From Candidatus Obscuribacteraceae bacterium (GTDB taxonomy: Bacteria; Cyanobacteriota; Vampirovibrionia; Obscuribacterales; Obscuribacteraceae), in assembly GCA_044226015.1 (NCBI GenBank), contig JBGAHS010000001.1:704001-768000 (forward strand): a stretch of DNA of 64,000 nucleotides. Reading direction: 5' to 3'. The translations under genes were made by a program, and so were the position numbers. The number at the start of each line of letters is the position of its first letter. Position 1 is the stretch's first letter. Positions 1 through 11,168 of the stretch are shown here, one piece after another. The notes under the pieces were generated by a model. It did no database searches, had not been told where the DNA came from, and worked only from the letters and a program-made list of their open reading frames with translations.

Positions 1-1
1 G

Positions 2-343
2 CAAGCACCTATCGGAAGTCAGATTGACCCAGCGCTTGCTCAAAAGTTGAACGAGCTCGAAGCAGCCAGAGACCATGAATCAGCAGTTGGCTTGCTGCGT
101 CAAGTTCTCACTCAGAACCTGCAGAATCCAGATATTCACCACAAACTGGCTGTGAATCTGTTGGCTGCAGGCAACGTGACAGAAGCAATCTCTGAGTTCC
201 GAATTGCATCGGCACTTCGCCCAGGCAACAAGGAGTTCGCAATCGACCTTGCAAGAGCAATGGAAATACACAAACGTTCCCAGGAAAGCGCGAATGAAGA
301 GCAAGTTCCAGCAGCATCAGGAAAAGAGGTAGCCGTTAAATGA
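2..343 (+). CDS. TPR-repeat protein, C-terminal part (5'-partial)
   Basis: Frame is open to the window edge; TPR-like helices (NPDIHHKLAVNLLAAGNVTEAISEFRIASALRP); stop overlaps the next start (ATGA at 340-343). Confidence 0.75.
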   Translation, partial: QAPIGSQIDPALAQKLNELEAARDHESAVGLLRQVLTQNLQNPDIHHKLAVNLLAAGNVTEAISEFRIASALRPGNKEFAIDLARAMEIHKRSQESANEEQVPAASGKEVAVK

Positions 344-3300
344 GCTTCTATTTCCAACCCCCAGATCTAGCTGAATTCCCGAGACGTTCGTACAGAAAGT
401 TTCTCGAAGAAACAATTGGCAAGCTTTTCACTGAAATTTCGCCAATTGGCAGTGAGTTCAACAACCGTTTCGAAATCTCTTTCATCGGCACCGATGGAAA
501 GGCTCACTGGAAGTTCGAAGACTACGGCATCGACTCCGGCTACCCAACATCGGCTGAACATGCTCGCAAATCTAACATGACGCATGCTCGCAGATTGCTC
601 ATGGACATCTGGCTTCGCGATACTCAGACTGGCGTACTGAGAAAGACCACCGCTTACATGGGTGACGTTCCAGTAATTACCGACCGCGGAACCTTCGTCA
701 TCAACGGTTCTGAGCGTGTCGTCCTTGGACAGTTGGTTCGTGCTCCTGGCGTATACTTCTCCAACCCAGACAATCAAATCTACAAAGCTTTGATTCTTGG
801 TGAACTTGGCGCTCCAATTTCTTTTGAACTCGACCTCGAGACCGGAACAGGCAAAACCAGCCGCGCTAAGTGCCGCATCAAGTTGCCAAAGCGTGGATGG
901 GTTTCAGCTGTAACCGTTTTGACAGCAATGGGCGTTGATTGGGATACATTGCAAAAGCGCATCTTCCCTTTGCTCAACAAGCATCGCATTGAGTACAAAC
1001 AACTCAACGCTTCCGAAGCCCTCTCAACCCTGGGCAGAGCCTGGAAGCCAGACGGTGCCGGCGGCGCAGGTGCTGGTTCTTCAGCACTTCAAGAAATCAC
1101 AGACCGTCGTCGTTATTCACTCGGTGATCTCGGTCGTCGTCGCTTCAACCGCAAACTAGACTCTGAAATTCAATCACTTCAGCTCACCAAAGAAGACATT
1201 CTTCTTGTTGTTGAATACTTGCTCAACCTGCCACTCGGCAATGGTACGACCGACAACATCGACAGCCTTGAAAATCGTCACCTTCGTGGAATTGGCGATG
1301 TTCTGACCAAAGCTGTTCGTCCAGCGCTTGCGCAGATGGTTCGTTCAGTTCGCACAAGACTCGAACTGCATGAAGATGATGAAGAAATCGGCAGCCCACA
1401 GGACTTTCTTGATGTTCGTCCTTTCGCAAATGCAATCAACAAGTTCTTCTCGGGCAATCCGTTGGTTCAATATCTCGACCAGCAAAACCCACTTTCTGAA
1501 CTTTCACATCGCCGCCGTATCACATCTTTCGGACCTGGCGGTATTGACCCGAACGCTGCACCGACAGAGATGCGCGACGTGCATCCAAGTCAGATTGGTC
1601 GCGTTTGCCTCGTAGAATCTCCTGAAGGTAAGAACTGCGGTATGGTGTCTTATATGGCAACATTCTGCCGCATCGATAACGACGGTTTCATGACCGTTCC
1701 TTACCGCCGTGTTGTTGATGGTGTAATGACAGATGCTGTCGATTACCTCACACCAGCTGACGACAAAAAATACACACTTGCACCACCCGATACCAAAGTT
1801 GATGGCATTCGCATTTGTGGACCAACAGTTTATGCTCGCCGTGGAGAAAGCTTCTATAACGTCGAACCGAGAGAAGTCGACTATATAGGAATTGCTCCAC
1901 AAGGTTTCCTCTCCGTCGGTTCCGGATTGATTCCTTTCCTCGAGCATGATGATGCCAACCGCGCTTTGATGGGCGGCGGCATGATGCGTCAAACTCTGCC
2001 TTTAATCAAGCCAGAGCGTCCACGCGTCGGAACCGGCATGGAAAAGATTGTTGCTAAGTCTTCTGGTCACTCAATCACCGCAAGACGCGCTGGCACAATC
2101 ACCAAGGTTACTGGCAAAGAAATTAGAGTGACACAGGCGTCTGGCGAATCGCGCACTTATCCTCTAATCCGCTATGACAGAACCAACCAGAACACCATTC
2201 TCGACCAGCGTCCAGCTGTGAAAGTTGGTGACAAAGTCGAAGCCGGACAAATCATCGCTGATGGACCTGGCATCGAAAAAGGCGAACTGGCACTCGGACG
2301 CAATCTCCTCGTAGCTTTCATTCCATGGAATGGACAGAACTATGAAGATGCTATCGTTGTCCGCCGTGGTTTGGTTCGTGACCACAAGCTAAGCCACATC
2401 GAAATCGAGAAGCACACAATCGGCGTTCACCAGACATTGCGTGGACCAGAAATCTTGACTCCAGAGCTTCCGAATATTTCTTCGAAAGATCTTGAGCATC
2501 TCGACGAGCGTGGCATCGCAAAGGTCGGCGCTTATGTTGAGCCTGGCGACATCCTGGTCTCTAAGCTTTCACCAAAAGAAGCTAAAGCAATGAGCGCTGA
2601 AGAAGAATTGCTTCAAGCAATCTTCGGAAAAGTCGCAGAAGAAATGGCTGACACCAGCTTGCGTGTTCCACACGGCTCTGGCGGTCGCGTCATCGATGTG
2701 CGCATCTTCACCCCGGAAACAACTCCAGAGTTGAAAGCTGGATTGATTTGCGAAATCGAAGTGCTCATCGCAAGACTCTGCCCGGTAGAAGTTGGCGATA
2801 AGCTCGCTGGACGCCACGGAAACAAGGGTATCGTTTCCATCATCGTTCCAGACGAAGACATGCCATATTTGCCAGACGGCACCCCTGTTGATATTTGCTT
2901 GAACCCACTGGGCGTTCCAAGCCGTATGAACATCGGACAGGTACTTGATACTCAGCTCGGTCTCTACTCGCAAATTCTCAACCGCTACTATCGCATTCAT
3001 CAATTCGATGAATCGTTGAGCCCAGATGCTTCGTTCAAACTAGTCAACGATGCACTTGCTGATGCTCGCAAAGTTCCAGGTTATGAGTGGATTGGCGAAA
3101 ACGGCAAAACAACACTTTATGACGGCAAGACTGGCGAGCCATTTGATCGTCCAGTTCTGGTCGGTCGCCAGTACATGCTGAAACTGAATCAATTGGTTCT
3201 GCACAAAATTAATGCTCGCTGCGGACTGGGTGGTCCATACGCTGCTGTAACCCAGCAACCCGTTGGTGGTAAAGCGAATCACGGCGGTCAGCGCATGGGT

Positions 3301-4179
3301 GAAATGGAAGTTTGGGCAATTCAAGCATACGGTGCTTCCCATATCCTTCACGAAATGATGACTGTAAAATCTGATGATGTAGAGGGACGTCACCAGATTT
3401 ATTCAGACATGGTACAAGGCAAAGAACTTACATCCGGAAAGAGAACCGCTGCGTTCGACGGACTTTGCTGCGAAATTCGTGGACTGGGTCTGGAAGTCAC
3501 TCTGGGCAAAGTTCTCGATGTCGAAGAGCCAATCGAGTCCAAAGCCTGCACCAAGAAGGGCAATGTCAAAACGAAGTCACTGGAAGAAGAATATCAAGTC
3601 AGCCATGTCGATCAACTCGAAGAAGACGGCAAGAAGATGGTCGAAATTCCAGCTGGCGATTATGAACCATTGATTCGTCCAACCGCTGAACCAGTTCTTG
3701 TTTCACTCGGAATGGGCAGAAATGCAAACAAAGTTCAATTTGATATGTCGGAAGAACCACTTATCGACGACATCGATGAAAACACTGAGTTGCAGCTGAT
3801 CGATGATTTCATCAGTGCCGAAACCGACGACATTATCGCTGCGCTCGGCAACGACAAGCCTGTTCAACCAGAAGCACCATGTTTGCGTAACATTGGACTC
3901 GATGATGTCGAGGACGAAGCCGAAGACATCTTCAGTATCAGTTCAATTATCAGAGCTGAAGCTGGCGACACTTCGATTCAAGGAACCGATGCTGCAAGAG
4001 CCGCAGTGCGTGCCGCTCAAAAGAGTCTCTGGGGTGATGATAAAAAAGATGAGCTGAGCTTTCCATCGTTCAGCGAACTCTCTTCACTTTCGCAACAACT
4101 TTCACAGCTCCTCGTTGGCGAACCCGAAAACGAGTTCAAGCCAGCAAATAATGAGCTGACGATTCTCACCAAGGAGTAA
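340..4179 (+). CDS. rpoB: Divergent DNA-directed RNA polymerase beta subunit (RpoB paralog) with acidic C-terminal extension
   Basis: Colinear beta motifs: GTFVINGSERV, DQQNPLSELSHRRR, PFLEHDDANRALMG, NYEDAI, GDKLAGRHGNKG, NPLGVPSRMNIGQ, GGQRMGEMEVWA, TVKSDD; no rpoC downstream. Confidence 0.95.
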   Translation: MSFYFQPPDLAEFPRRSYRKFLEETIGKLFTEISPIGSEFNNRFEISFIGTDGKAHWKFEDYGIDSGYPTSAEHARKSNMTHARRLLMDIWLRDTQTGVLRKTTAYMGDVPVITDRGTFVINGSERVVLGQLVRAPGVYFSNPDNQIYKALILGELGAPISFELDLETGTGKTSRAKCRIKLPKRGWVSAVTVLTAMGVDWDTLQKRIFPLLNKHRIEYKQLNASEALSTLGRAWKPDGAGGAGAGSSALQEITDRRRYSLGDLGRRRFNRKLDSEIQSLQLTKEDILLVVEYLLNLPLGNGTTDNIDSLENRHLRGIGDVLTKAVRPALAQMVRSVRTRLELHEDDEEIGSPQDFLDVRPFANAINKFFSGNPLVQYLDQQNPLSELSHRRRITSFGPGGIDPNAAPTEMRDVHPSQIGRVCLVESPEGKNCGMVSYMATFCRIDNDGFMTVPYRRVVDGVMTDAVDYLTPADDKKYTLAPPDTKVDGIRICGPTVYARRGESFYNVEPREVDYIGIAPQGFLSVGSGLIPFLEHDDANRALMGGGMMRQTLPLIKPERPRVGTGMEKIVAKSSGHSITARRAGTITKVTGKEIRVTQASGESRTYPLIRYDRTNQNTILDQRPAVKVGDKVEAGQIIADGPGIEKGELALGRNLLVAFIPWNGQNYEDAIVVRRGLVRDHKLSHIEIEKHTIGVHQTLRGPEILTPELPNISSKDLEHLDERGIAKVGAYVEPGDILVSKLSPKEAKAMSAEEELLQAIFGKVAEEMADTSLRVPHGSGGRVIDVRIFTPETTPELKAGLICEIEVLIARLCPVEVGDKLAGRHGNKGIVSIIVPDEDMPYLPDGTPVDICLNPLGVPSRMNIGQVLDTQLGLYSQILNRYYRIHQFDESLSPDASFKLVNDALADARKVPGYEWIGENGKTTLYDGKTGEPFDRPVLVGRQYMLKLNQLVLHKINARCGLGGPYAAVTQQPVGGKANHGGQRMGEMEVWAIQAYGASHILHEMMTVKSDDVEGRHQIYSDMVQGKELTSGKRTAAFDGLCCEIRGLGLEVTLGKVLDVEEPIESKACTKKGNVKTKSLEEEYQVSHVDQLEEDGKKMVEIPAGDYEPLIRPTAEPVLVSLGMGRNANKVQFDMSEEPLIDDIDENTELQLIDDFISAETDDIIAALGNDKPVQPEAPCLRNIGLDDVEDEAEDIFSISSIIRAEAGDTSIQGTDAARAAVRAAQKSLWGDDKKDELSFPSFSELSSLSQQLSQLLVGEPENEFKPANNELTILTKE

Positions 4180-4185
4180 CTTAGA

Positions 4186-5901
4186 ATGGCAGATGCACCA
4201 AAAAAGAAAGGAAGGTTTGTGAGACTGACGAGTCTCACGATGCTGACTGCATCCGCATTAATGACTGTGGCACCTGCAGCACTCGCTGACTACGCCGAAT
4301 GTTTAGGTGGACCGCGGCAAACAGATACTCTGAGAAATCCATTAGTTCCGGGCGCACCAAGCGGTTTGCCCGGACAAGCCGTTACAGGGTCCAGACCGCC
4401 AGCTGTCGGTGATGGTTCATGTCCTGCTCCCTTGATTCAAGGTGATGGCAACGGTCCAACCCGTGTCACAAGCGGTTATGCAGATCGCGGACATGGCAGT
4501 ATTTTCCAGGCCGGTGGCAGCCAGGGCGCTAAGGTTCCTTATGGCTACATCGGTGGTGCGGGTCGCTATCCGACATCTGCTGGTCGTCAGCAAGGTATGT
4601 ACGATTACGGTCAGGGTGCGCGTTACGGCAAAAATACTTATGAAGCCGGCGCAAGCAATCTTGGTCAAACAACATATGAGTCCGGAATGGAATTGTATGG
4701 ACAACGCAAGTATGACGCTGGTCAAGGCATGTATGGACAGACCATTTACCAGGGCAATGGTGGTGGCTATGGTCAACGCACCTACGAAATGGGCGGACAA
4801 ATAGCTGGTCAATCTACCTATGAAAGCGGCATGGGAAATTATGGTAACCGCAGCTATGACTACGGTCAGGGACTTGCTGGACAGGGCACCTACCAGAGTG
4901 GAGCCGGCAATTATGGTCAAAGAACTTATGAAAACGGATCTGAGTTAAGCGGCTCGTCTATGTATGACAATGGCGCTGGAAATGGCGGCATGCGCAAATA
5001 CGATAATGGCGGCGGCAACACTGGCTCGCGTATGTTCGACAATGGTCAGGGCAATGGCGGCACTCAGTATTATTCTGGTAAAGGTCGCGGCGGTCAGATG
5101 ACTTACGACAATGGCCAGGGTAATGGCGGAAAAAAGCTTGGTGATGGTGGCGCCGGAAATGGTGGCACCCGTAGCAATGATTTTGGAACAGAGGCCAACG
5201 GCAGCAGAATCAACAATGATGGTGGCACGCGCACAGGTGCGCAGGGTGTCTACAATGCTGGTGGACCACGTTCAAATGCAGACCAGTCGAATGATAATGT
5301 ATTTGCCCATGACAGACAGGGCAACAACTATGATTTCCAGGGTCCGCTTCCAACAGTTCGTACATTCTGTCGTTATTTAGTTATTCTCGGTGTTGTTGCC
5401 GCCTGCGTTTGGGTAGGCATGGCAGCCATCGGCGTTGTGATGGGTAATCGCAATGGAGTTGAAAGAGTTGTCGGAGCGATTGCAGGTCTTCTGCTATTGC
5501 TTGCAGGCTACACCATCTGGAAGATTGTCCAGATGAATACGTTCAAGGCCAATACCACTGGTGTCTGGTCAATGACTCGCGGAATGGCTCAGCCCAAACC
5601 ACAAAATGGACCAGTTAATCCTCCGCAGAACTTCGCTCCTCCAGAAGACCCAGGTCAGACTCCAGCAGCACCTGGACCAGGAGCCAACCAACAAGAGCAA
5701 CGTCAACGTACTGGTCCTCAAAACTACCGTCCAACGCAGGGTCAGACACCACGTGAAATTCAAGGTCCCTACAACTATCGTCCACAAGGTGGCTACACCG
5801 GTCACCCACAAGGTCCAAACAGAGTCGGCAGCTATGACATTCCTCCTGCCAATATCGTGCCTGAACCGCCCGAAATGCCTGTAATCAACCCGAATAGATA
5901 G
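4186..5901 (+). CDS. Exported/membrane protein with Gly/Tyr/Asn-rich 12-aa repeats, a two-TM pilin-like hairpin and a Pro/Gln-rich tail
   Basis: Signal-peptide-like N-terminus (KKKGRF...APAALA); YxxGxxxxGxxx repeats; two hydrophobic helices at about 5365-5525. Confidence 0.8.
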   Translation: MADAPKKKGRFVRLTSLTMLTASALMTVAPAALADYAECLGGPRQTDTLRNPLVPGAPSGLPGQAVTGSRPPAVGDGSCPAPLIQGDGNGPTRVTSGYADRGHGSIFQAGGSQGAKVPYGYIGGAGRYPTSAGRQQGMYDYGQGARYGKNTYEAGASNLGQTTYESGMELYGQRKYDAGQGMYGQTIYQGNGGGYGQRTYEMGGQIAGQSTYESGMGNYGNRSYDYGQGLAGQGTYQSGAGNYGQRTYENGSELSGSSMYDNGAGNGGMRKYDNGGGNTGSRMFDNGQGNGGTQYYSGKGRGGQMTYDNGQGNGGKKLGDGGAGNGGTRSNDFGTEANGSRINNDGGTRTGAQGVYNAGGPRSNADQSNDNVFAHDRQGNNYDFQGPLPTVRTFCRYLVILGVVAACVWVGMAAIGVVMGNRNGVERVVGAIAGLLLLLAGYTIWKIVQMNTFKANTTGVWSMTRGMAQPKPQNGPVNPPQNFAPPEDPGQTPAAPGPGANQQEQRQRTGPQNYRPTQGQTPREIQGPYNYRPQGGYTGHPQGPNRVGSYDIPPANIVPEPPEMPVINPNR

Positions 5902-5987
5902 AGATTAGAGCTAGTTCAGGAAAGAAAAAATCAGTATTAGAGACGGTTTTCACGCTATTCGAGAAAGAAAATAAACGGTACAACAAT

Positions 5988-6722
5988 ATGGTAATCGAGA
6001 TACAAGCAGGAAAAATGGCAATGAGCATGGCACTTGCCGCCGTGATACTCTCCGCCATTGCTCCAGCGGGCGCTACGCAACCTCGTAGTGAAGTCCGTGA
6101 GGATCGATTCGACAGAAGCACACCGCCACCCGCGCCAACGCGGGCACCACTGACGGGAAATGTATACTCTGTTCGCACCAATCCGCAGCCTGTTCTCAAC
6201 GTGCCTCATCCTGAGGTCTCAAAGCAAAGCACACCACAAGAATGGTTCAATGCGCTGGACACATATGTGGGCTTTTACAGACCAACCGACAAGGATAAGT
6301 ACGTCATAAATACCCCATTTAACGATGAGGTAGAGAAGGTAAATGCCTTCTGCAAAACTGTCGCTGGCGTTGCGCATAAATATCGAGCATTGGCCAAAAA
6401 CCTAAAAGCTATGCCGATTTCGACAAATCTTCCTGACCAACAAAAGGTCAAAGAATATAGAGATTTGCTCGCTAATTGGTACGACGACTCTGCGGTTGTT
6501 TATGAGGACATGATTCGTCCCAGACCAGCAGCAAAAACAAAAGAAGAACTGCAAGGCATGATTGGTTCCATCAGGGACAGATCAGAAAGCTTGAAGTCAA
6601 ATCTGGAACTTCTGCAAAAAATGGATTCAGACATCAGACTCTCTTGCCATGTAGACCCACCCAAATACGATGACATGATTCGCAAATATGCTGGCGAAGC
6701 TGGCTACGCAGGTCATCGCTAG
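5988..6722 (+). CDS. Secreted hypothetical protein (helical)
   Basis: 244-aa ORF with a signal-like N-terminus; true start may be an internal Met. Confidence 0.7.
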   Translation: MVIEIQAGKMAMSMALAAVILSAIAPAGATQPRSEVREDRFDRSTPPPAPTRAPLTGNVYSVRTNPQPVLNVPHPEVSKQSTPQEWFNALDTYVGFYRPTDKDKYVINTPFNDEVEKVNAFCKTVAGVAHKYRALAKNLKAMPISTNLPDQQKVKEYRDLLANWYDDSAVVYEDMIRPRPAAKTKEELQGMIGSIRDRSESLKSNLELLQKMDSDIRLSCHVDPPKYDDMIRKYAGEAGYAGHR

Positions 6723-6794
6723 CTCCTCCCCACTCTCTCCAATTCCCACACTTCAGGCTAATTTTTTGCCTAAAAAACAGAGGACTCCACCATC

Positions 6795-7571
6795 ATGGCC
6801 ATCCAATTAAGCGAGCGAGATATGATGATCTTCAAGTTCATTGAAGAGCACCAGGTACTTCTCGAAAAGCATATTGCCTGGTTCATTTCCTGCGATGAAA
6901 AGCCAGTCTTGATTCGCGATAGACTCAGGAAACTTTTTTACCTCGACTATCTTCTTTGTCAACGTCACGCAGGCAAATTGCCCTGGTGGACAACTCCGAC
7001 AAAGCCGCTAGTCTATATGCTCTCGCCCATGGCGCGTGGTATGGTAGCAAGTTCAGAGTGCGAGATGGACCTATCAGATACTGATGTTCAGCGCCACTTG
7101 CTTGAAGTAGCAAATTTGCGCATGATATTTTTGACAGACCAGAAAGCTGGACTCATCACCGAGTTTCACTGGACAACTGTACCGAGCGTGAGTTCACTGG
7201 CAACTATTTGTGCGACAGTTTCTTTCAACAGAAACGGCAGAGTTCATAGAGCCGCTGTGATCAACAACTTTGGCATCGCCGCAGACAGCGCGCGTGAGGC
7301 TGCAGAAAAAGCTATCGCAGATGGAAGCTCAGATATGATCTGGATAATTTCTTCTGATGAAGCTCAGCAAGAAACTCTGCAACAAGCTCTTAGCAGTTCG
7401 AATATTGCAAACAGAATTGCATTCACTACTCACCAGGAAATATACAAAGCTGGTGTTGTTAAAGCAAAATGGCAGAGTGCAAGCAAAGCTTATGCTCCCG
7501 TTATTGCCGAATCTGTCGTCGTGGCACACACCAATATGGCTTGGAATCCAAGCATGGCAACTCCAGCCTGA
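6795..7571 (+). CDS. wHTH protein, Replic_Relax (replication-relaxation)-like
   Basis: LSERDMMIFKFIEEHQVL...IRDRLRKLFYLDYL and HLLEVANLR resemble the Replic_Relax N-terminus; GAGG RBS upstream. Confidence 0.55.
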   Translation: MAIQLSERDMMIFKFIEEHQVLLEKHIAWFISCDEKPVLIRDRLRKLFYLDYLLCQRHAGKLPWWTTPTKPLVYMLSPMARGMVASSECEMDLSDTDVQRHLLEVANLRMIFLTDQKAGLITEFHWTTVPSVSSLATICATVSFNRNGRVHRAAVINNFGIAADSAREAAEKAIADGSSDMIWIISSDEAQQETLQQALSSSNIANRIAFTTHQEIYKAGVVKAKWQSASKAYAPVIAESVVVAHTNMAWNPSMATPA

Positions 7572-7624
7572 GCGAGATCGGCTGAAATCCTTTCCAGCAC
7601 TATGTTGGAACCCTGAGTATATTG

Positions 7625-7654
7625 AAAGAGCGATGTATCCCATCGCTCTTTTTT
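7625..7654 (+). terminator. Intrinsic terminator
   Basis: AAAGAGCGATG-tatcc-CATCGCTCTTT followed by TTT. Confidence 0.75.
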
Positions 7655-7672
7655 GCTAAGATTGCCAATAAC

Positions 7673-9187
7673 ATGGATCATAATCGGGAAATTGAGGCAG
7701 ATGAGGTTCGCGGCGAGACCGTCGTGAGCCCTCCTGAGGATCTGGCAAAGGTCGAGCACTCTGCTTCTCAGCCAAGTGCTGTAGATGCCAGAGCAAACAC
7801 CGATAGATCTGGTCAAAAACTTTCTGAAGAACTTCTAGACGCCCCCCTTGTACATGGTGGGCTCTGGAAAGCGATCTGGCTAATGTCCTGGCCGCTTTTA
7901 ATCAGCACTGTTGCCACGTCCATTGTTGGAGCAATTGATGTCCAGGTTTCCGGCTACCTGGGCAAAGAAGCGCAGGCTGCTGTGGGCATCGCAGAGCACG
8001 TGCTTTTCCTCTTTATGGTGTTCATCTTCTCTGTCAGTGTAGGCACCACGGCCATTGTTTCACGAGAGTTCGGCGAGGGAAATCTTGCTGGTACCATTGA
8101 TGGTGCCAGTCAATCGATTCAGCTTTCAGTTAGCAGTGGGTTTGTTCTTGCCTTAGCTGCCCTTTGTTTTGCCCATGTTTTGTTGCCATTCTTGAGCAAA
8201 GACCCTGAGATAATTCAGCTAGGCTCTACCTATCTGTCTATATTTAGCCTTTACATGGTACCTTTCAGTTTAATTTGCATTATCAATTCAGCCTTTCGTG
8301 CAATTGGTGATTCCAAAACGCCTCTATTTATTGTTCTGTTCGAGGTGATTGCCAACATTTTTGGTGACTATGCGGTTGTGTTGTGGAACTGGCCGGTTCC
8401 AGGTTTAGGTTTACGTGGTATCGCTGGGGCTGCGGTTGTATCCGCATTTATAGCTGCAGTGGTATCACTGGTGATGATTCGCCGATCACCTTTGCGTGAG
8501 GCACTGACATTGAATCGCCTCGGAAAATTTGATTGGAGCTGGCAAAAACGAATCTTGAAGATAGGCTTGCCTTCTGCAATTCAGCGGCTCGGCTGGGCGG
8601 GTAGCGTCTTTGCAGTTTTCTTCATTCTGGCTCAATTAAAAGAAAGTACTGCTGCTCTGGCCTCATGGACTATTGGAATGAGAATTGAGGCTTTACTTTT
8701 CATGCCACTAATGGCTTTTTCGCTTGCGGTCTCATCGATAGTAGGGCAAAATCTTGGTGCAGGTAAGCCAGAAAGAGCAATAAAAGCTGGTTGGAACGTC
8801 ACTCTCATTGGAGTGATTTCCATGTTTATTCTAGCCGCTGGCATGTATTTGCTGGCAGATCCTATTGCGCATTCCATGAGTCAAGATGCAAAAACAATTT
8901 CATTTGCGGCAGATTACATGCGAATAAATGCCATGGGCGAGCCATTCCTTGCCGTAGCTATGGTACTCATGGGTGCTATGCAAGGTGCTGGTGATACGAA
9001 GATTCCAATGTGGATTTCCTTGTTCTGCAATTGGGTGGTGCGTTTGCCTCTTGCCTGGTGGCTGGCGCTTAATTGCAAGCTAGAAACAAATGGTGTCTGG
9101 TACGCGATGATCAGTTCTGTCTTAGCCTGCGCGATTCTCTGTACTGTCAGATATCAATCGAAGCAGTGGCTCAAGGTGAAAATTTGA
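7673..9187 (+). CDS. MATE family efflux transporter
   Basis: Many TM helices; FRAIGDSKTPL, VGQNLGAG and MQGAGDTK motifs; ATG at 7673 preferred over the ORF-track start inside the terminator. Confidence 0.93.
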   Translation: MDHNREIEADEVRGETVVSPPEDLAKVEHSASQPSAVDARANTDRSGQKLSEELLDAPLVHGGLWKAIWLMSWPLLISTVATSIVGAIDVQVSGYLGKEAQAAVGIAEHVLFLFMVFIFSVSVGTTAIVSREFGEGNLAGTIDGASQSIQLSVSSGFVLALAALCFAHVLLPFLSKDPEIIQLGSTYLSIFSLYMVPFSLICIINSAFRAIGDSKTPLFIVLFEVIANIFGDYAVVLWNWPVPGLGLRGIAGAAVVSAFIAAVVSLVMIRRSPLREALTLNRLGKFDWSWQKRILKIGLPSAIQRLGWAGSVFAVFFILAQLKESTAALASWTIGMRIEALLFMPLMAFSLAVSSIVGQNLGAGKPERAIKAGWNVTLIGVISMFILAAGMYLLADPIAHSMSQDAKTISFAADYMRINAMGEPFLAVAMVLMGAMQGAGDTKIPMWISLFCNWVVRLPLAWWLALNCKLETNGVWYAMISSVLACAILCTVRYQSKQWLKVKI

Positions 9188-11168
9188 GCTTTTGCTCATT
9201 CAGAAAAGCGCGGATGTCAGAGACCTCTTTGCGGTGCATGTCATCAAATTCTGCCGGTTTTTCTTTCACCCATTTTTCGGCTCCTTGTAAGTACATTTCT
9301 GCTTCGCTTATTTTGTTGTTTGCCACCAGCAGGCGCACTAATTTGCCGGCAATATTTGATGCGCTGCCAGGACTTGCTACGGTTGGCGGCAATTGCTCAA
9401 TTTGTTGGAACGCTGTTTTCAATTCATCAACAGCATCCTCTGATTTACCAGCGCGGAAGGATATTTCACTCAAAGTATCTAACAAGTTGATTTTGTCTAT
9501 TCCTTCTGTTTTTGGATCTTTGTTGATGGTGGCAATCTCCTTCTTTGTAGCGAGATAGAGTTTATCGAACTCATGGAATTTCTTGAAATGCAATTCTGTC
9601 TCTAGTTCCGCAAGATGAAGTACTGCGGTGTCGACCTGACGGTCAGCCCCGCTCTCTAACTCTACGTAGTGTTTTACAGCCTCGAGAAATCTTCTGCTTT
9701 TGAATTCTGTCTTGTCCGAGAGAAGATCTAGAGTTGTGGAATGAATTTGCCATGCCATGCTATGCAGGCTGCCCTCACTGCCAACAATCGTCACAAGGTG
9801 GTATGAAATTTCTGAGCCCTCACCTTGCTTAAAGAACTCGTTATCATAATTCATCATGATAAAAACTTGACCAGGGTCGAAGCTTCCTTTTTTCGGAGTC
9901 AGACCCTCAACGATGCTGCTGACGCCTCTGAGAATAGCGAGGTCTTGATGAGCAAATTCATTGCTTTTATGATTATTTGGATACTCTGTTCCTAACAAAT
10001 TATATGCTTTGGCTGCAAGTGCGAGAGCCTGTTCTTCCTTTCCTTCCTCTTTCGCGCGATGTGCATCAGTAACATACTGTTTTGCTCGAGCTATTGTAGA
10101 CTCGCGGACATTCCTTTTTATTCTAACGGCAGGCAGCTGGTCGTTAGTCGTATGTGAGGTAAAGAAGATTGAGAGCCCAATCACTGTTATTAACACGATG
10201 CAAATTGCAGCAATGAAGGCCCACTGCTTTTCATTTCGTTTTGCCGCGCGGACCTTAGGTGCTTTATCCAGTGTGATGTCGTTCAAAACCTGGTTCAGTT
10301 TCTCAGCAAAAACTTGAGCTGATGCTGGACGATCAGCTGGGAGTTTTGCCAATCCCCACAATAAAAGTTTGGACAGTTCTATCGGTACTTCCATACGGCT
10401 GCTGAACTCTGCGGCTGTTGGAACTGGTGAATTGACGTGCATGAGCATGGTATCAAAGGCAGAGTCACCTTTAAATGGAGCTTCGCCTGAAAGAGCCATG
10501 TACATTACACAGCAAAGAGAGTAAATGTCTGACCTTCCATCGATGCTGGAGTTCTGACATTGTTCTGGGCTCATGAAAGAAGGGCTACCAACGACAGTTC
10601 CTGTGCGTGTCAGGTTCAAGGATTTTTCGTCGTAGAGTTTTGCTATTCCGAAATCCAAAAGCTTTACTATAGGTTTATCTGGATTTTCAGAATTCTCGCA
10701 AATCATTATGTTTGCTGGCTTGATGTCTCTATGCACAATGCCTGCAGCATGTGCTTTTTGTAGTGCTGAAAGTAATGGAATAAAGATGCTTTGAAAACGA
10801 CGAAATGTGAGAGGCGCATTCTTTGCGATTTCGTCAGATAGCGGAACACCATCCAGGTATTCGAAAATCAAATAGGGCTCTTCATTTTTAGTTAGCCCGT
10901 ACGCGAGTGTTTTGACTATTACCGGGTCGTCCATCGCTGAGCACAACTTTGCTTCTTGATGAAACCTGTCAATTCCGTTTGAGCCAGCCAGAGTAGCTTT
11001 AGAGAGTACTTTTACGGCCACGATTCGATCAAGCCTGCGTTGCCTGGCCTTGAACACTTGAGCCATGCCGCCTCTACCAATAGGCTCAATTATTTCGATT
11101 TCCGGAATGCTGGGAAAATCAGCTTGTACTGGTTTTAGCTCAGGATTTGATTCGTCCTGATGATTCAT
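9171..11168 (-). CDS. Hanks-type Ser/Thr protein kinase with TM helix and helical extracytoplasmic domain
   Basis: IGRGGMAQVF, VAVK, HRDIKPANI, DFG, MSPEQ, DIYSL motifs, then a TM helix; start may extend to 11237. Confidence 0.93.
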   Translation of the reverse strand: MNHQDESNPELKPVQADFPSIPEIEIIEPIGRGGMAQVFKARQRRLDRIVAVKVLSKATLAGSNGIDRFHQEAKLCSAMDDPVIVKTLAYGLTKNEEPYLIFEYLDGVPLSDEIAKNAPLTFRRFQSIFIPLLSALQKAHAAGIVHRDIKPANIMICENSENPDKPIVKLLDFGIAKLYDEKSLNLTRTGTVVGSPSFMSPEQCQNSSIDGRSDIYSLCCVMYMALSGEAPFKGDSAFDTMLMHVNSPVPTAAEFSSRMEVPIELSKLLLWGLAKLPADRPASAQVFAEKLNQVLNDITLDKAPKVRAAKRNEKQWAFIAAICIVLITVIGLSIFFTSHTTNDQLPAVRIKRNVRESTIARAKQYVTDAHRAKEEGKEEQALALAAKAYNLLGTEYPNNHKSNEFAHQDLAILRGVSSIVEGLTPKKGSFDPGQVFIMMNYDNEFFKQGEGSEISYHLVTIVGSEGSLHSMAWQIHSTTLDLLSDKTEFKSRRFLEAVKHYVELESGADRQVDTAVLHLAELETELHFKKFHEFDKLYLATKKEIATINKDPKTEGIDKINLLDTLSEISFRAGKSEDAVDELKTAFQQIEQLPPTVASPGSASNIAGKLVRLLVANNKISEAEMYLQGAEKWVKEKPAEFDDMHRKEVSDIRAFLNEQKLKFSP

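Follow-up and report, generated by a model that had tools for sequence, protein, structure and literature searches.

A divergent second RNA polymerase beta subunit conserved across the Obscuribacterales and its possible link to a conjugation-type secretion programme

Bacteria are taught as having one core RNA polymerase (RNAP) that is steered by sigma factors, and since beta is present as one copy per core, two different betas imply two enzymes. In plants, the specialised Pol IV and Pol V have duplicated large subunits, share the rest and carry altered residues near the active site; they are unlike the case described below in being eukaryotic, in having both large subunits duplicated and in their role in RNA silencing. 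The known bacterial rpoB duplicates that we met in the portions of the literature available to us are near-identical, rifamycin-resistant copies, and the accessible passages of one source describe two beta genes per genome in Nonomuraea gerenzanensis (rpoB(S)/rpoB(R)) and Nocardia farcinica (rpoB2), yielding two RNAP forms of which the second can reprogramme transcription, with rpoB(R) set apart by the loss of six residues and by five substitutions, H526N and S531Y among them (PMC5431353). Lineage-wide diverged core-subunit paralogs are likewise described for Francisella, where, according to the part of the paper at hand, alpha1 and alpha2 pair as a heterodimer within a single enzyme (PMC3294249). 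In the present study, we analysed a stretch of 64,000 nucleotides (hereafter the window; G000:C11:704001-768000) from the 8.19-Mb, 92% complete genome G000 of a Candidatus Obscuribacteraceae bacterium, and confirmed that it encodes a divergent second RNAP beta, here called beta2, also a diverged core-subunit paralog, although two betas would not share one enzyme as the Francisella alphas do. In our favoured reading, for which we put the probability slightly above one half (about 0.52), beta2 would replace the housekeeping beta in part of the RNAP pool, so that a second enzyme would serve a conjugation-type secretion programme.

Beta2 is encoded by a single unbroken open reading frame (ORF) of 1279 amino acids (aa) at window positions 340-4179 (+), within which the Pfam Rpb2 domains 1, 2, 3, 45, 6 and 7 run in beta order, and this bears out the original prediction of a complete, uninterrupted beta with its conserved segments in order. 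The protein passes the curated NCBIfam cut-offs (PRK00405, 1068 versus 896 bits; TIGR02013, 1034.9 versus 801.15), and the three near-invariant motifs that had been read as altered were verified (NIDSLENRH, CLVESPEGKNCGMV and TAAFDGLCCEIRGL). Its core is 72-96% identical between orthologs and 40-47% identical to the housekeeping RpoB of the class, with 41.7% identity over 1067 columns to the canonical beta of the same genome. Beta2 is like the housekeeping RpoB of cyanobacterial type (TIGR02013, PRK00405) in domain order, in its catalytic-side residues and in a compact build that has no E. coli beta inserts, and its best solved-structure match is 8syi_C, which we take to be of cyanobacterial origin; it differs in being a second copy with no rpoC after it, in H1237Q (residue numbers are those of E. 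coli throughout), in its long tail and in having its own operon and regulon. The acidic tail varies between 117 and 586 aa among beta2 orthologs, and its short motifs recur in 36/50, 30/50 and 46/50 tails. An AlphaFold2 model built from a 29-sequence alignment reached a predicted local distance difference test score (pLDDT) of 45; it was unusable and was left out of the fold search.

The genome also holds a canonical rpoB-rpoC1-rpoC2 locus, whose rpoB sits with beta2 on one 1.39-Mb contig, and the GC content of beta2 is host-like. BLASTP and family searches of G000 found no second rpoC1, rpoC2 or rpoA, one of each being present, and five out of five near-complete relatives, two of these single contigs, possess one rpoC1 each. 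Beta2 is therefore a lone second beta, and the suggestion that it pairs with a paralogous beta' had to be abandoned. A separate mobile-element RNAP with its own beta' was rejected on the same grounds and on the order-wide, not patchy, synteny. As to the flanks, the tetratricopeptide repeat (TPR) gene upstream and the membrane-protein gene downstream are indeed there, but the absence of rplL, taken at first as a sign of paralogy, was dropped because the canonical copy has no adjacent rplL either. That canonical RpoB of the order (L001:7318-10836) likewise ends in an acidic tail, about 107 aa long in G000. Seventeen sigma-70 region-2 matches were counted in G000, nine of them in strongly scoring frames of 326-414 aa; no stand-alone CarD was found in this genome, the sole match lying in a 1233-aa frame.

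Among the matches listed, 89 of the 107 genomes of the order have a beta2 match at 73-100% identity (90 rows, G013 appearing twice, with 57 weaker matches outside the listing), and none of these 90 matches has an internal stop. As read from the match table, beta2 is present in 36 of the 39 order genomes with at least 90% completeness and at most 5% contamination, and in two of the three good-quality genomes lacking it the operon is severed by a contig start; two single-contig genomes (G041 and G065) carry it beside the canonical copy. By contrast, no ortholog was detected in 221 genomes of other Vampirovibrionia orders (at least 85% complete, six of which gave no RpoB match, with at most two candidates scored per genome), where no listed match exceeded 45% identity and none reached the E-value of 0 that beta2 gives. 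From other classes of the phylum, 37 of 40 genomes matched TIGR02013 in three or four pieces, which amounts to one gene, against six pieces in G000. Among 1.84 billion cluster representatives, two matched at 79-81%, and none of the remaining 148 in the best 150 exceeded 47%; the titled records with beta2 are largely named Ca. Obscuribacterales, Obscuribacter or Melainabacteria. Two irregular cases were seen: G013 has two beta2 operons (C21:133938-137438 and C50:9-3758) and extra regulator copies, and with 8% contamination may be a mixed bin, and the beta2 of G018 is divided at an N-gap.

In a tree of 36 rows, the paralogs formed one clade that grouped with the canonical copies of the phylum (Shimodaira-Hasegawa-like approximate likelihood-ratio support, 97), its stem of 3.77 changes per column being so long that the clade is poorly placed. 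A placement test with 16 rows and ten fixed placements, the first run of which used only 2000 replicates, left all seven placements within or beside the phylum possible, including that as sister to the order's own rpoB (approximately unbiased test, p 0.26 and 0.19), and rejected the three outgroup-side placements (p 0.015-0.035). The simplest reading of these trees would be a duplication in this lineage, then a burst of change and then conservation; an origin from an unsampled donor is possible, and so is an ancient origin on a mobile element. Within the genus, the ratio of nonsynonymous to synonymous change (dN/dS) of beta2 is 0.025-0.088 in the 27 unsaturated of 28 pairs, with dS near saturation, compared with 0.017-0.051 for canonical rpoB, and in environmental contigs 25 of the 26 listed variant sites in the beta2 core are synonymous. 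The proposal of a paralog under its own selection thus stands, in view of order-wide occurrence, intact frames and this dN/dS range; beta2 is not the only rpoB, and its orthologs are not pseudogenised. These results also bear on the idea that beta2 is a decaying duplicate, a contaminant or the passenger of a mobile element, for which one may cite the long stem, the two copies of contaminated G013, the split gene of G018 and the resemblance of the operon partners to conjugation genes. We find this idea hardly credible, as the gene is syntenic across the order, lies on the same contig as canonical rpoB with host-like GC and is present in G041 and G065; pseudogene and contaminant readings are refuted by intact frames, order-wide synteny and dN/dS.

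For the residue anatomy we aligned 23 paralogs with 35 canonical copies. The canonical set and E. coli share 392 invariant positions; every paralog retains the residue at 215 of these and every paralog departs from it at 119, of which 78 show one fixed replacement. The retained residues include E813, D814, K1065, K1073, R1106, R678, R687, Q688, K1242 and R1269 (23/23), as well as D1084, Q513, D516, H526, R529, R151, D446 and R451; except where a source is given below, the roles of residues and segments in catalysis, alpha binding and flap-sigma contact are those generally assigned to them. Of the active-centre and RNA-contact residues, E813/D814 are retained in 76/76 loci and K1065/K1073 and R1106 in 75/76, the single miss fitting a locus that ends at residue 716. 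In the catalytic and alpha-binding segments 661-830 and 1058-1122, all 23 paralogs keep 72 of 91 invariants, compared with 73 of 183 in the lobe, fork and flap. The lobe, fork loop 2, the Mfd site and the flap are remodelled, with changes at W183P, R540P, E541 and R542A, IKE117-119 to LRK and a rewritten gate loop; the flap tip shows R903Q/E908K/K909V, with its hydrophobic face kept (L901, L902, I/V905 and F906); and the C-terminal part shows H1237Q, D1240L, D1241H, H1244N, Q1264N, F1265H and PES1320-1322 to TAA. At position 1237, the Q motif is found in 75 of the 76 loci and the canonical H motif in none. According to the accessible parts of the respective papers, W183 stacks against the non-template base at +1, and with W183A promoter complexes are shorter-lived while elongation is not slowed (PMC4499132), Mfd binding needs I117, K118 and E119 (PMC3001067), and the primer phosphate is contacted by H1237, K1065 and K1073 (10.1101/2021.04.06.438613). 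Taken as a whole, the residue pattern suggests an enzyme that would still assemble and polymerise, but would handle promoters, initiation and factors differently.

The rifampicin-pocket region is altered too (S531T, L533F, I572V and S574Y, plus V146L), and of the 51 invariant positions in E. coli 509-575, 22 differ in every paralog, which could speak for a reserve beta that withstands rifamycins or other inhibitors of RNAP, on the model of actinobacterial rpoB(R)/rpoB2. This we hold to be improbable: beta2 retains H526, D516, Q513 and R529, while in rpoB(R) the H526N change plays the central part as far as the passages at hand go (PMC5431353), change is spread over the whole beta2 protein, and the operon and regulon are secretion-related. 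Set against rpoB(R)/rpoB2 as described there, beta2 has about 57% of its residues different, keeps H526, carries S531T in 23/23 paralogs, is fixed across an order and has a secretion regulon, so that it appears to be like the actinobacterial pair in principle, yet without its defining features.

Turning to the genomic setting, the operon comprises five genes in a fixed order (TPR, beta2, membrane protein, secreted protein and Replic_Relax-like), 66 of 76 loci having the full set and the other 10 reaching contig ends (the coordinates of all features are collected in Table 1). The TPR stop overlaps the beta2 start by 4 nucleotides (nt), and the same overlap occurs in 52 of 67 orthologous junctions. 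No Pfam match was obtained for the membrane protein, and PF04956/PF18895 (TrbC/VirB2-type pilin) were matched by 0/26 of its orthologs; its Atlas pilin-family clusters stand at 0.80, and its profile weakly matches two proteins of a secretion cluster on contig C10 (E 1e-4 and 7e-3), so a TrbC/VirB2-like pilin is only a lead. Window positions 4186-5300 hold Gly/Asn/Tyr-rich repeats that are expanded in this genus and absent from most other genera (571 versus about 280-390 aa). For the last operon gene, Replic_Relax PF13814 matched 1/30 orthologs at a weak E of 0.0043 and 0/30 above the cut-off; its Atlas cluster (0.93) is 64% PF13814, its profile matches the true Replic_Relax gene of the genome at E 1.5e-4, the best nuclease rows of a fold search were at E 4e-3, and no PDB family was found for the protein. 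A complex prediction of beta2 (1-870) with this protein (1-128) scored 0.00 and was counted neither way. As two operon-protein profiles weakly match genes of the C10 cluster, the operon may, these similarities suggest, have grown from conjugation genes.

Table 1. Features of the beta2 locus and of its related loci in G000. Positions without a contig label are those of the window.
Feature	Position	Strand	Description
TPR protein, 696 aa, 3' end	1..343 (starts G000:C11:702253, before the window)	+	First operon gene; signal-peptide-like N-terminus by eye
Beta2 core, residues 1-1060	340..3519	+	RNA polymerase beta paralog; spans the RpoB homology
Beta2 acidic C-terminal tail, 219 aa	3520..4179	+	Short recurring motifs
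Membrane protein, 571 aa	4186..5901	+	Signal-peptide-like start, Gly/Pro-rich region, conserved two-helix hairpin (alignment)
Predicted secreted protein, 244 aa	5988..6722	+	No known family
Replic_Relax-like protein	6795..7571	+	Last operon gene; near-invariant N-terminal helical domain, variable restriction-nuclease-like C-terminal domain
Tandem box upstream of TPR gene	G000:C11:702189-702222	+	Pair of imperfect 14-bp palindromes (20 bp apart), some 1.8 kb ahead of the window
NarL/LuxR-family response regulator	G000:C11:694765-695679	-	Divergent from the operon; candidate master regulator
78-aa gene, stand-alone	G000:C11:510453-510689	-	Same tandem box upstream
Canonical rpoB-rpoC1-rpoC2	G000:C11:1301318-1310545		Only other RpoB-like gene in the genome
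Conjugation-type cluster	G000:C10:61345-90202	-	VirB4-type (TraG/VirB4) ATPase, type IV secretion system coupling protein (VirD4), Replic_Relax, two DUF2225 proteins

The fixed operon, and an upstream motif that it has in common with a conjugation-type secretion cluster, had been overlooked in the original prediction. A generic promoter/terminator scan of window positions 1-7800 stayed at chance level. The region before the TPR gene contains a tandem box (TGGGA-N4-TACGA and TGGGA-N4-CCCCA, then a conserved TAAGCT), which is present in 59 of 67 beta2 operon loci with upstream DNA and is a probable activator-dependent promoter of the operon. Because the single palindromic box is weakly specific (13 perfect sites at 4-nt spacing versus 9 at 3 and 9 at 5), the analysis was confined to the tandem form. 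Of 31 genomes, 28 contain the exact pattern at one or two sites, a reversed control giving 0 matches, and of 11 such sites inspected, seven precede one conserved 78-aa gene, two the operon and two other genes. With a box matrix trained on the operon promoters of relatives only and then run on G000, the five top tandem sites scored 25.7-30.8 and the next 19.2, and these five lie before the operon, before the 78-aa gene and, three of them, in C10:63-90 kb. There the conjugation-type cluster, which is chromosomal and order-wide and also encodes pilin-like and large membrane proteins, has three tandem-box promoters. Counting G000, the box is found in 17/26 VirB4 loci and in 20/20 loci of the other operon of this cluster (37/46), versus 0/34 canonical rpoB loci and 0/54 stretches downstream of the operon (0/88) used as controls. 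The VirB4 ortholog is present in 26 of 28 genomes of the order and in none of 13 outside it, and the NarL-family regulator lies within 7 kb upstream of the operon in 56 of 76 loci and is found in 24 of 27 order relatives at 82-98% identity (best 37% outside), being more conserved than beta2. As kin are not independent, the counts for box, VirB4 and regulator stand for joint inheritance, not for repeated association. The 78-aa protein has 115 homologs (54-99% identity), those with names coming from Obscuribacterales/Melainabacteria-type records, and searches of Pfam, NCBIfam and the PDB assigned it to no family; it is a candidate small factor of the regulon.

Such surroundings give rise to the thought that the beta2 enzyme primes or transcribes single-stranded or relaxase-processed DNA during transfer, in the donor or after transfer, and priming by host RNAP does occur on single-stranded plasmid DNA. 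The lost contacts of the non-template strand and fork loop 2 (W183P, R540P, E541, R542A and the gate loop), together with H1237Q and the kept chemistry residues, would suit this role, as would the Replic_Relax-like gene in the operon and the coupling protein and Replic_Relax gene in the regulon. Against it, the G+2 pocket (R151, D446 and R451) and the hydrophobic flap-tip face are kept, as expected of a sigma-using duplex enzyme, and no transfer origin or cargo was identified, so we regard the proposal as unlikely. The same residue H1237Q, standing beside three more fixed changes (D1240L, D1241H and H1244N), can also be taken to mean that beta2 is non-productive or inhibitory and sequesters alpha and beta' at home, or is exported to a recipient or prey cell. 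High predicted expression, the long acidic tail with its short motifs and co-regulation with a secretion system agree with that, and a predatory relative has been proposed, in the part of the source available, to use a conjugative type IV secretion system on prey (PMC4451040). We nonetheless doubt it, given that an inert decoy would not obviously need the ten residues kept in 23/23 paralogs (E813, D814, K1065, K1073, R1106, R678, R687, Q688, K1242 and R1269) and that canonical beta has an acidic tail too.

To return to the favoured reading, in which beta2 takes the place of beta in part of the pool, the codon adaptation of beta2 (measured against ribosomal-protein genes) is 0.79, compared with 0.76 for canonical rpoB, and exceeds that of 99.7% of 2177 long ORFs; by a simpler codon index, beta2 exceeds the neighbouring ORFs in 42 of 43 loci of relatives. 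We read this as pointing to substantial, perhaps conditional, expression. A swap of beta2 into core RNAP is plausible, since the retained assembly and catalytic residues and the codon bias fit it. The sequence of events could be as follows: the order-specific NarL-family regulator beside the operon would bind the tandem boxes and turn the regulon on; beta2, produced at core-subunit levels, would compete with beta for alpha and beta'; the resulting core would use the single alpha, gamma (rpoC1) and beta' (rpoC2); and this enzyme would polymerise RNA, but open and hold promoters and engage sigma differently and be less open to Mfd, whereby transcription may be shifted towards the genes of the programme. 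Rather more tentatively, at somewhat under an even chance, we suppose that Obscuribacterales run two chromosomal RNAPs and that a regulator-controlled beta swap, yielding an enzyme with altered promoter opening and initiation, serves a domesticated conjugation/secretion programme for mating, DNA exchange or prey contact.

Several observations weigh against this reading. Position 1237 is Q in all 23 aligned paralogs, whereas each of 122 other divergent RpoBs has H there, and H1237Q might hamper initiation. Divergent RpoBs in general show part of the contrast between a retained core and an altered surface: in those 122 proteins the core mean is 0.89 and the surface mean 0.73 (0.52-0.95), compared with 0.86 and 0.52 (range 0.51-0.54) in the paralogs. 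That beta2 would assemble and be active is read from the kept segments only. Likewise, the link between regulator and box is drawn from adjacency and co-distribution only, the shared tandem motif would mean co-regulation at best and not transcription of those genes by beta2, and a strong tandem box stands before 0/17 sigma genes of G000. In 16 of 19 genomes, beta2 has a smaller share of C-ending optimal codons than canonical rpoB. Contig pieces of 151-348 nt from two metatranscriptomes, each of a different study, fall in beta2 and the next two genes at about 95-100% identity and a depth of 2-10; they show neither strand nor level, could be DNA carry-over and offer only a hint of transcription, and the missing coverage over 7131-9300 was given no weight. 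The same comparison at the canonical locus was swamped by rpoB/rpoC of other organisms. Finally, G025 and G026 (94% and 88% complete, small, fragmented, of a second family) keep VirB4 with tandem boxes, and no match to beta2 or to the last operon gene was found in either; the regulator of G026 (L241, C233:24000-40983) is found with no adjacent operon, while in G027, from the same genus, the regulator, the box and the TPR gene occur together. The operon may thus be truly lost in these two genomes, and beta2 therefore looks dispensable for the secretion cluster in some lineages.

Should the favoured reading hold, control would be exerted by exchange of a core subunit and not of sigma, giving a bacterial counterpart of the specialised eukaryotic polymerases, and a common group of uncultured bacteria would have a conjugation-type programme yet to be described. 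Beta2 is an ancient, order-wide beta, about 43% identical to the housekeeping copy, in which residues conserved almost everywhere else carry fixed changes. It can serve as a natural mutant for studying W183, fork loop 2, the Mfd site and H1237, and it warns that rpoB is not single-copy in this order; two cores differing only in beta make the idea directly testable. No description of beta2 was found in the openly licensed PMC papers and bioRxiv texts searched, although a subscription paper or supplement might hold one, and the available passages of 10.1101/2020.02.28.969766, PMC4040986 and PMC4451040 do not mention it.

Additionally, G000 has a second VirB4/TraC-like gene (C1:182285-205260), near TadE-like genes, which is 33% identical to the first and for which no strong tandem box was found; its match in G000 contains two stops, and the gene is intact in most relatives.

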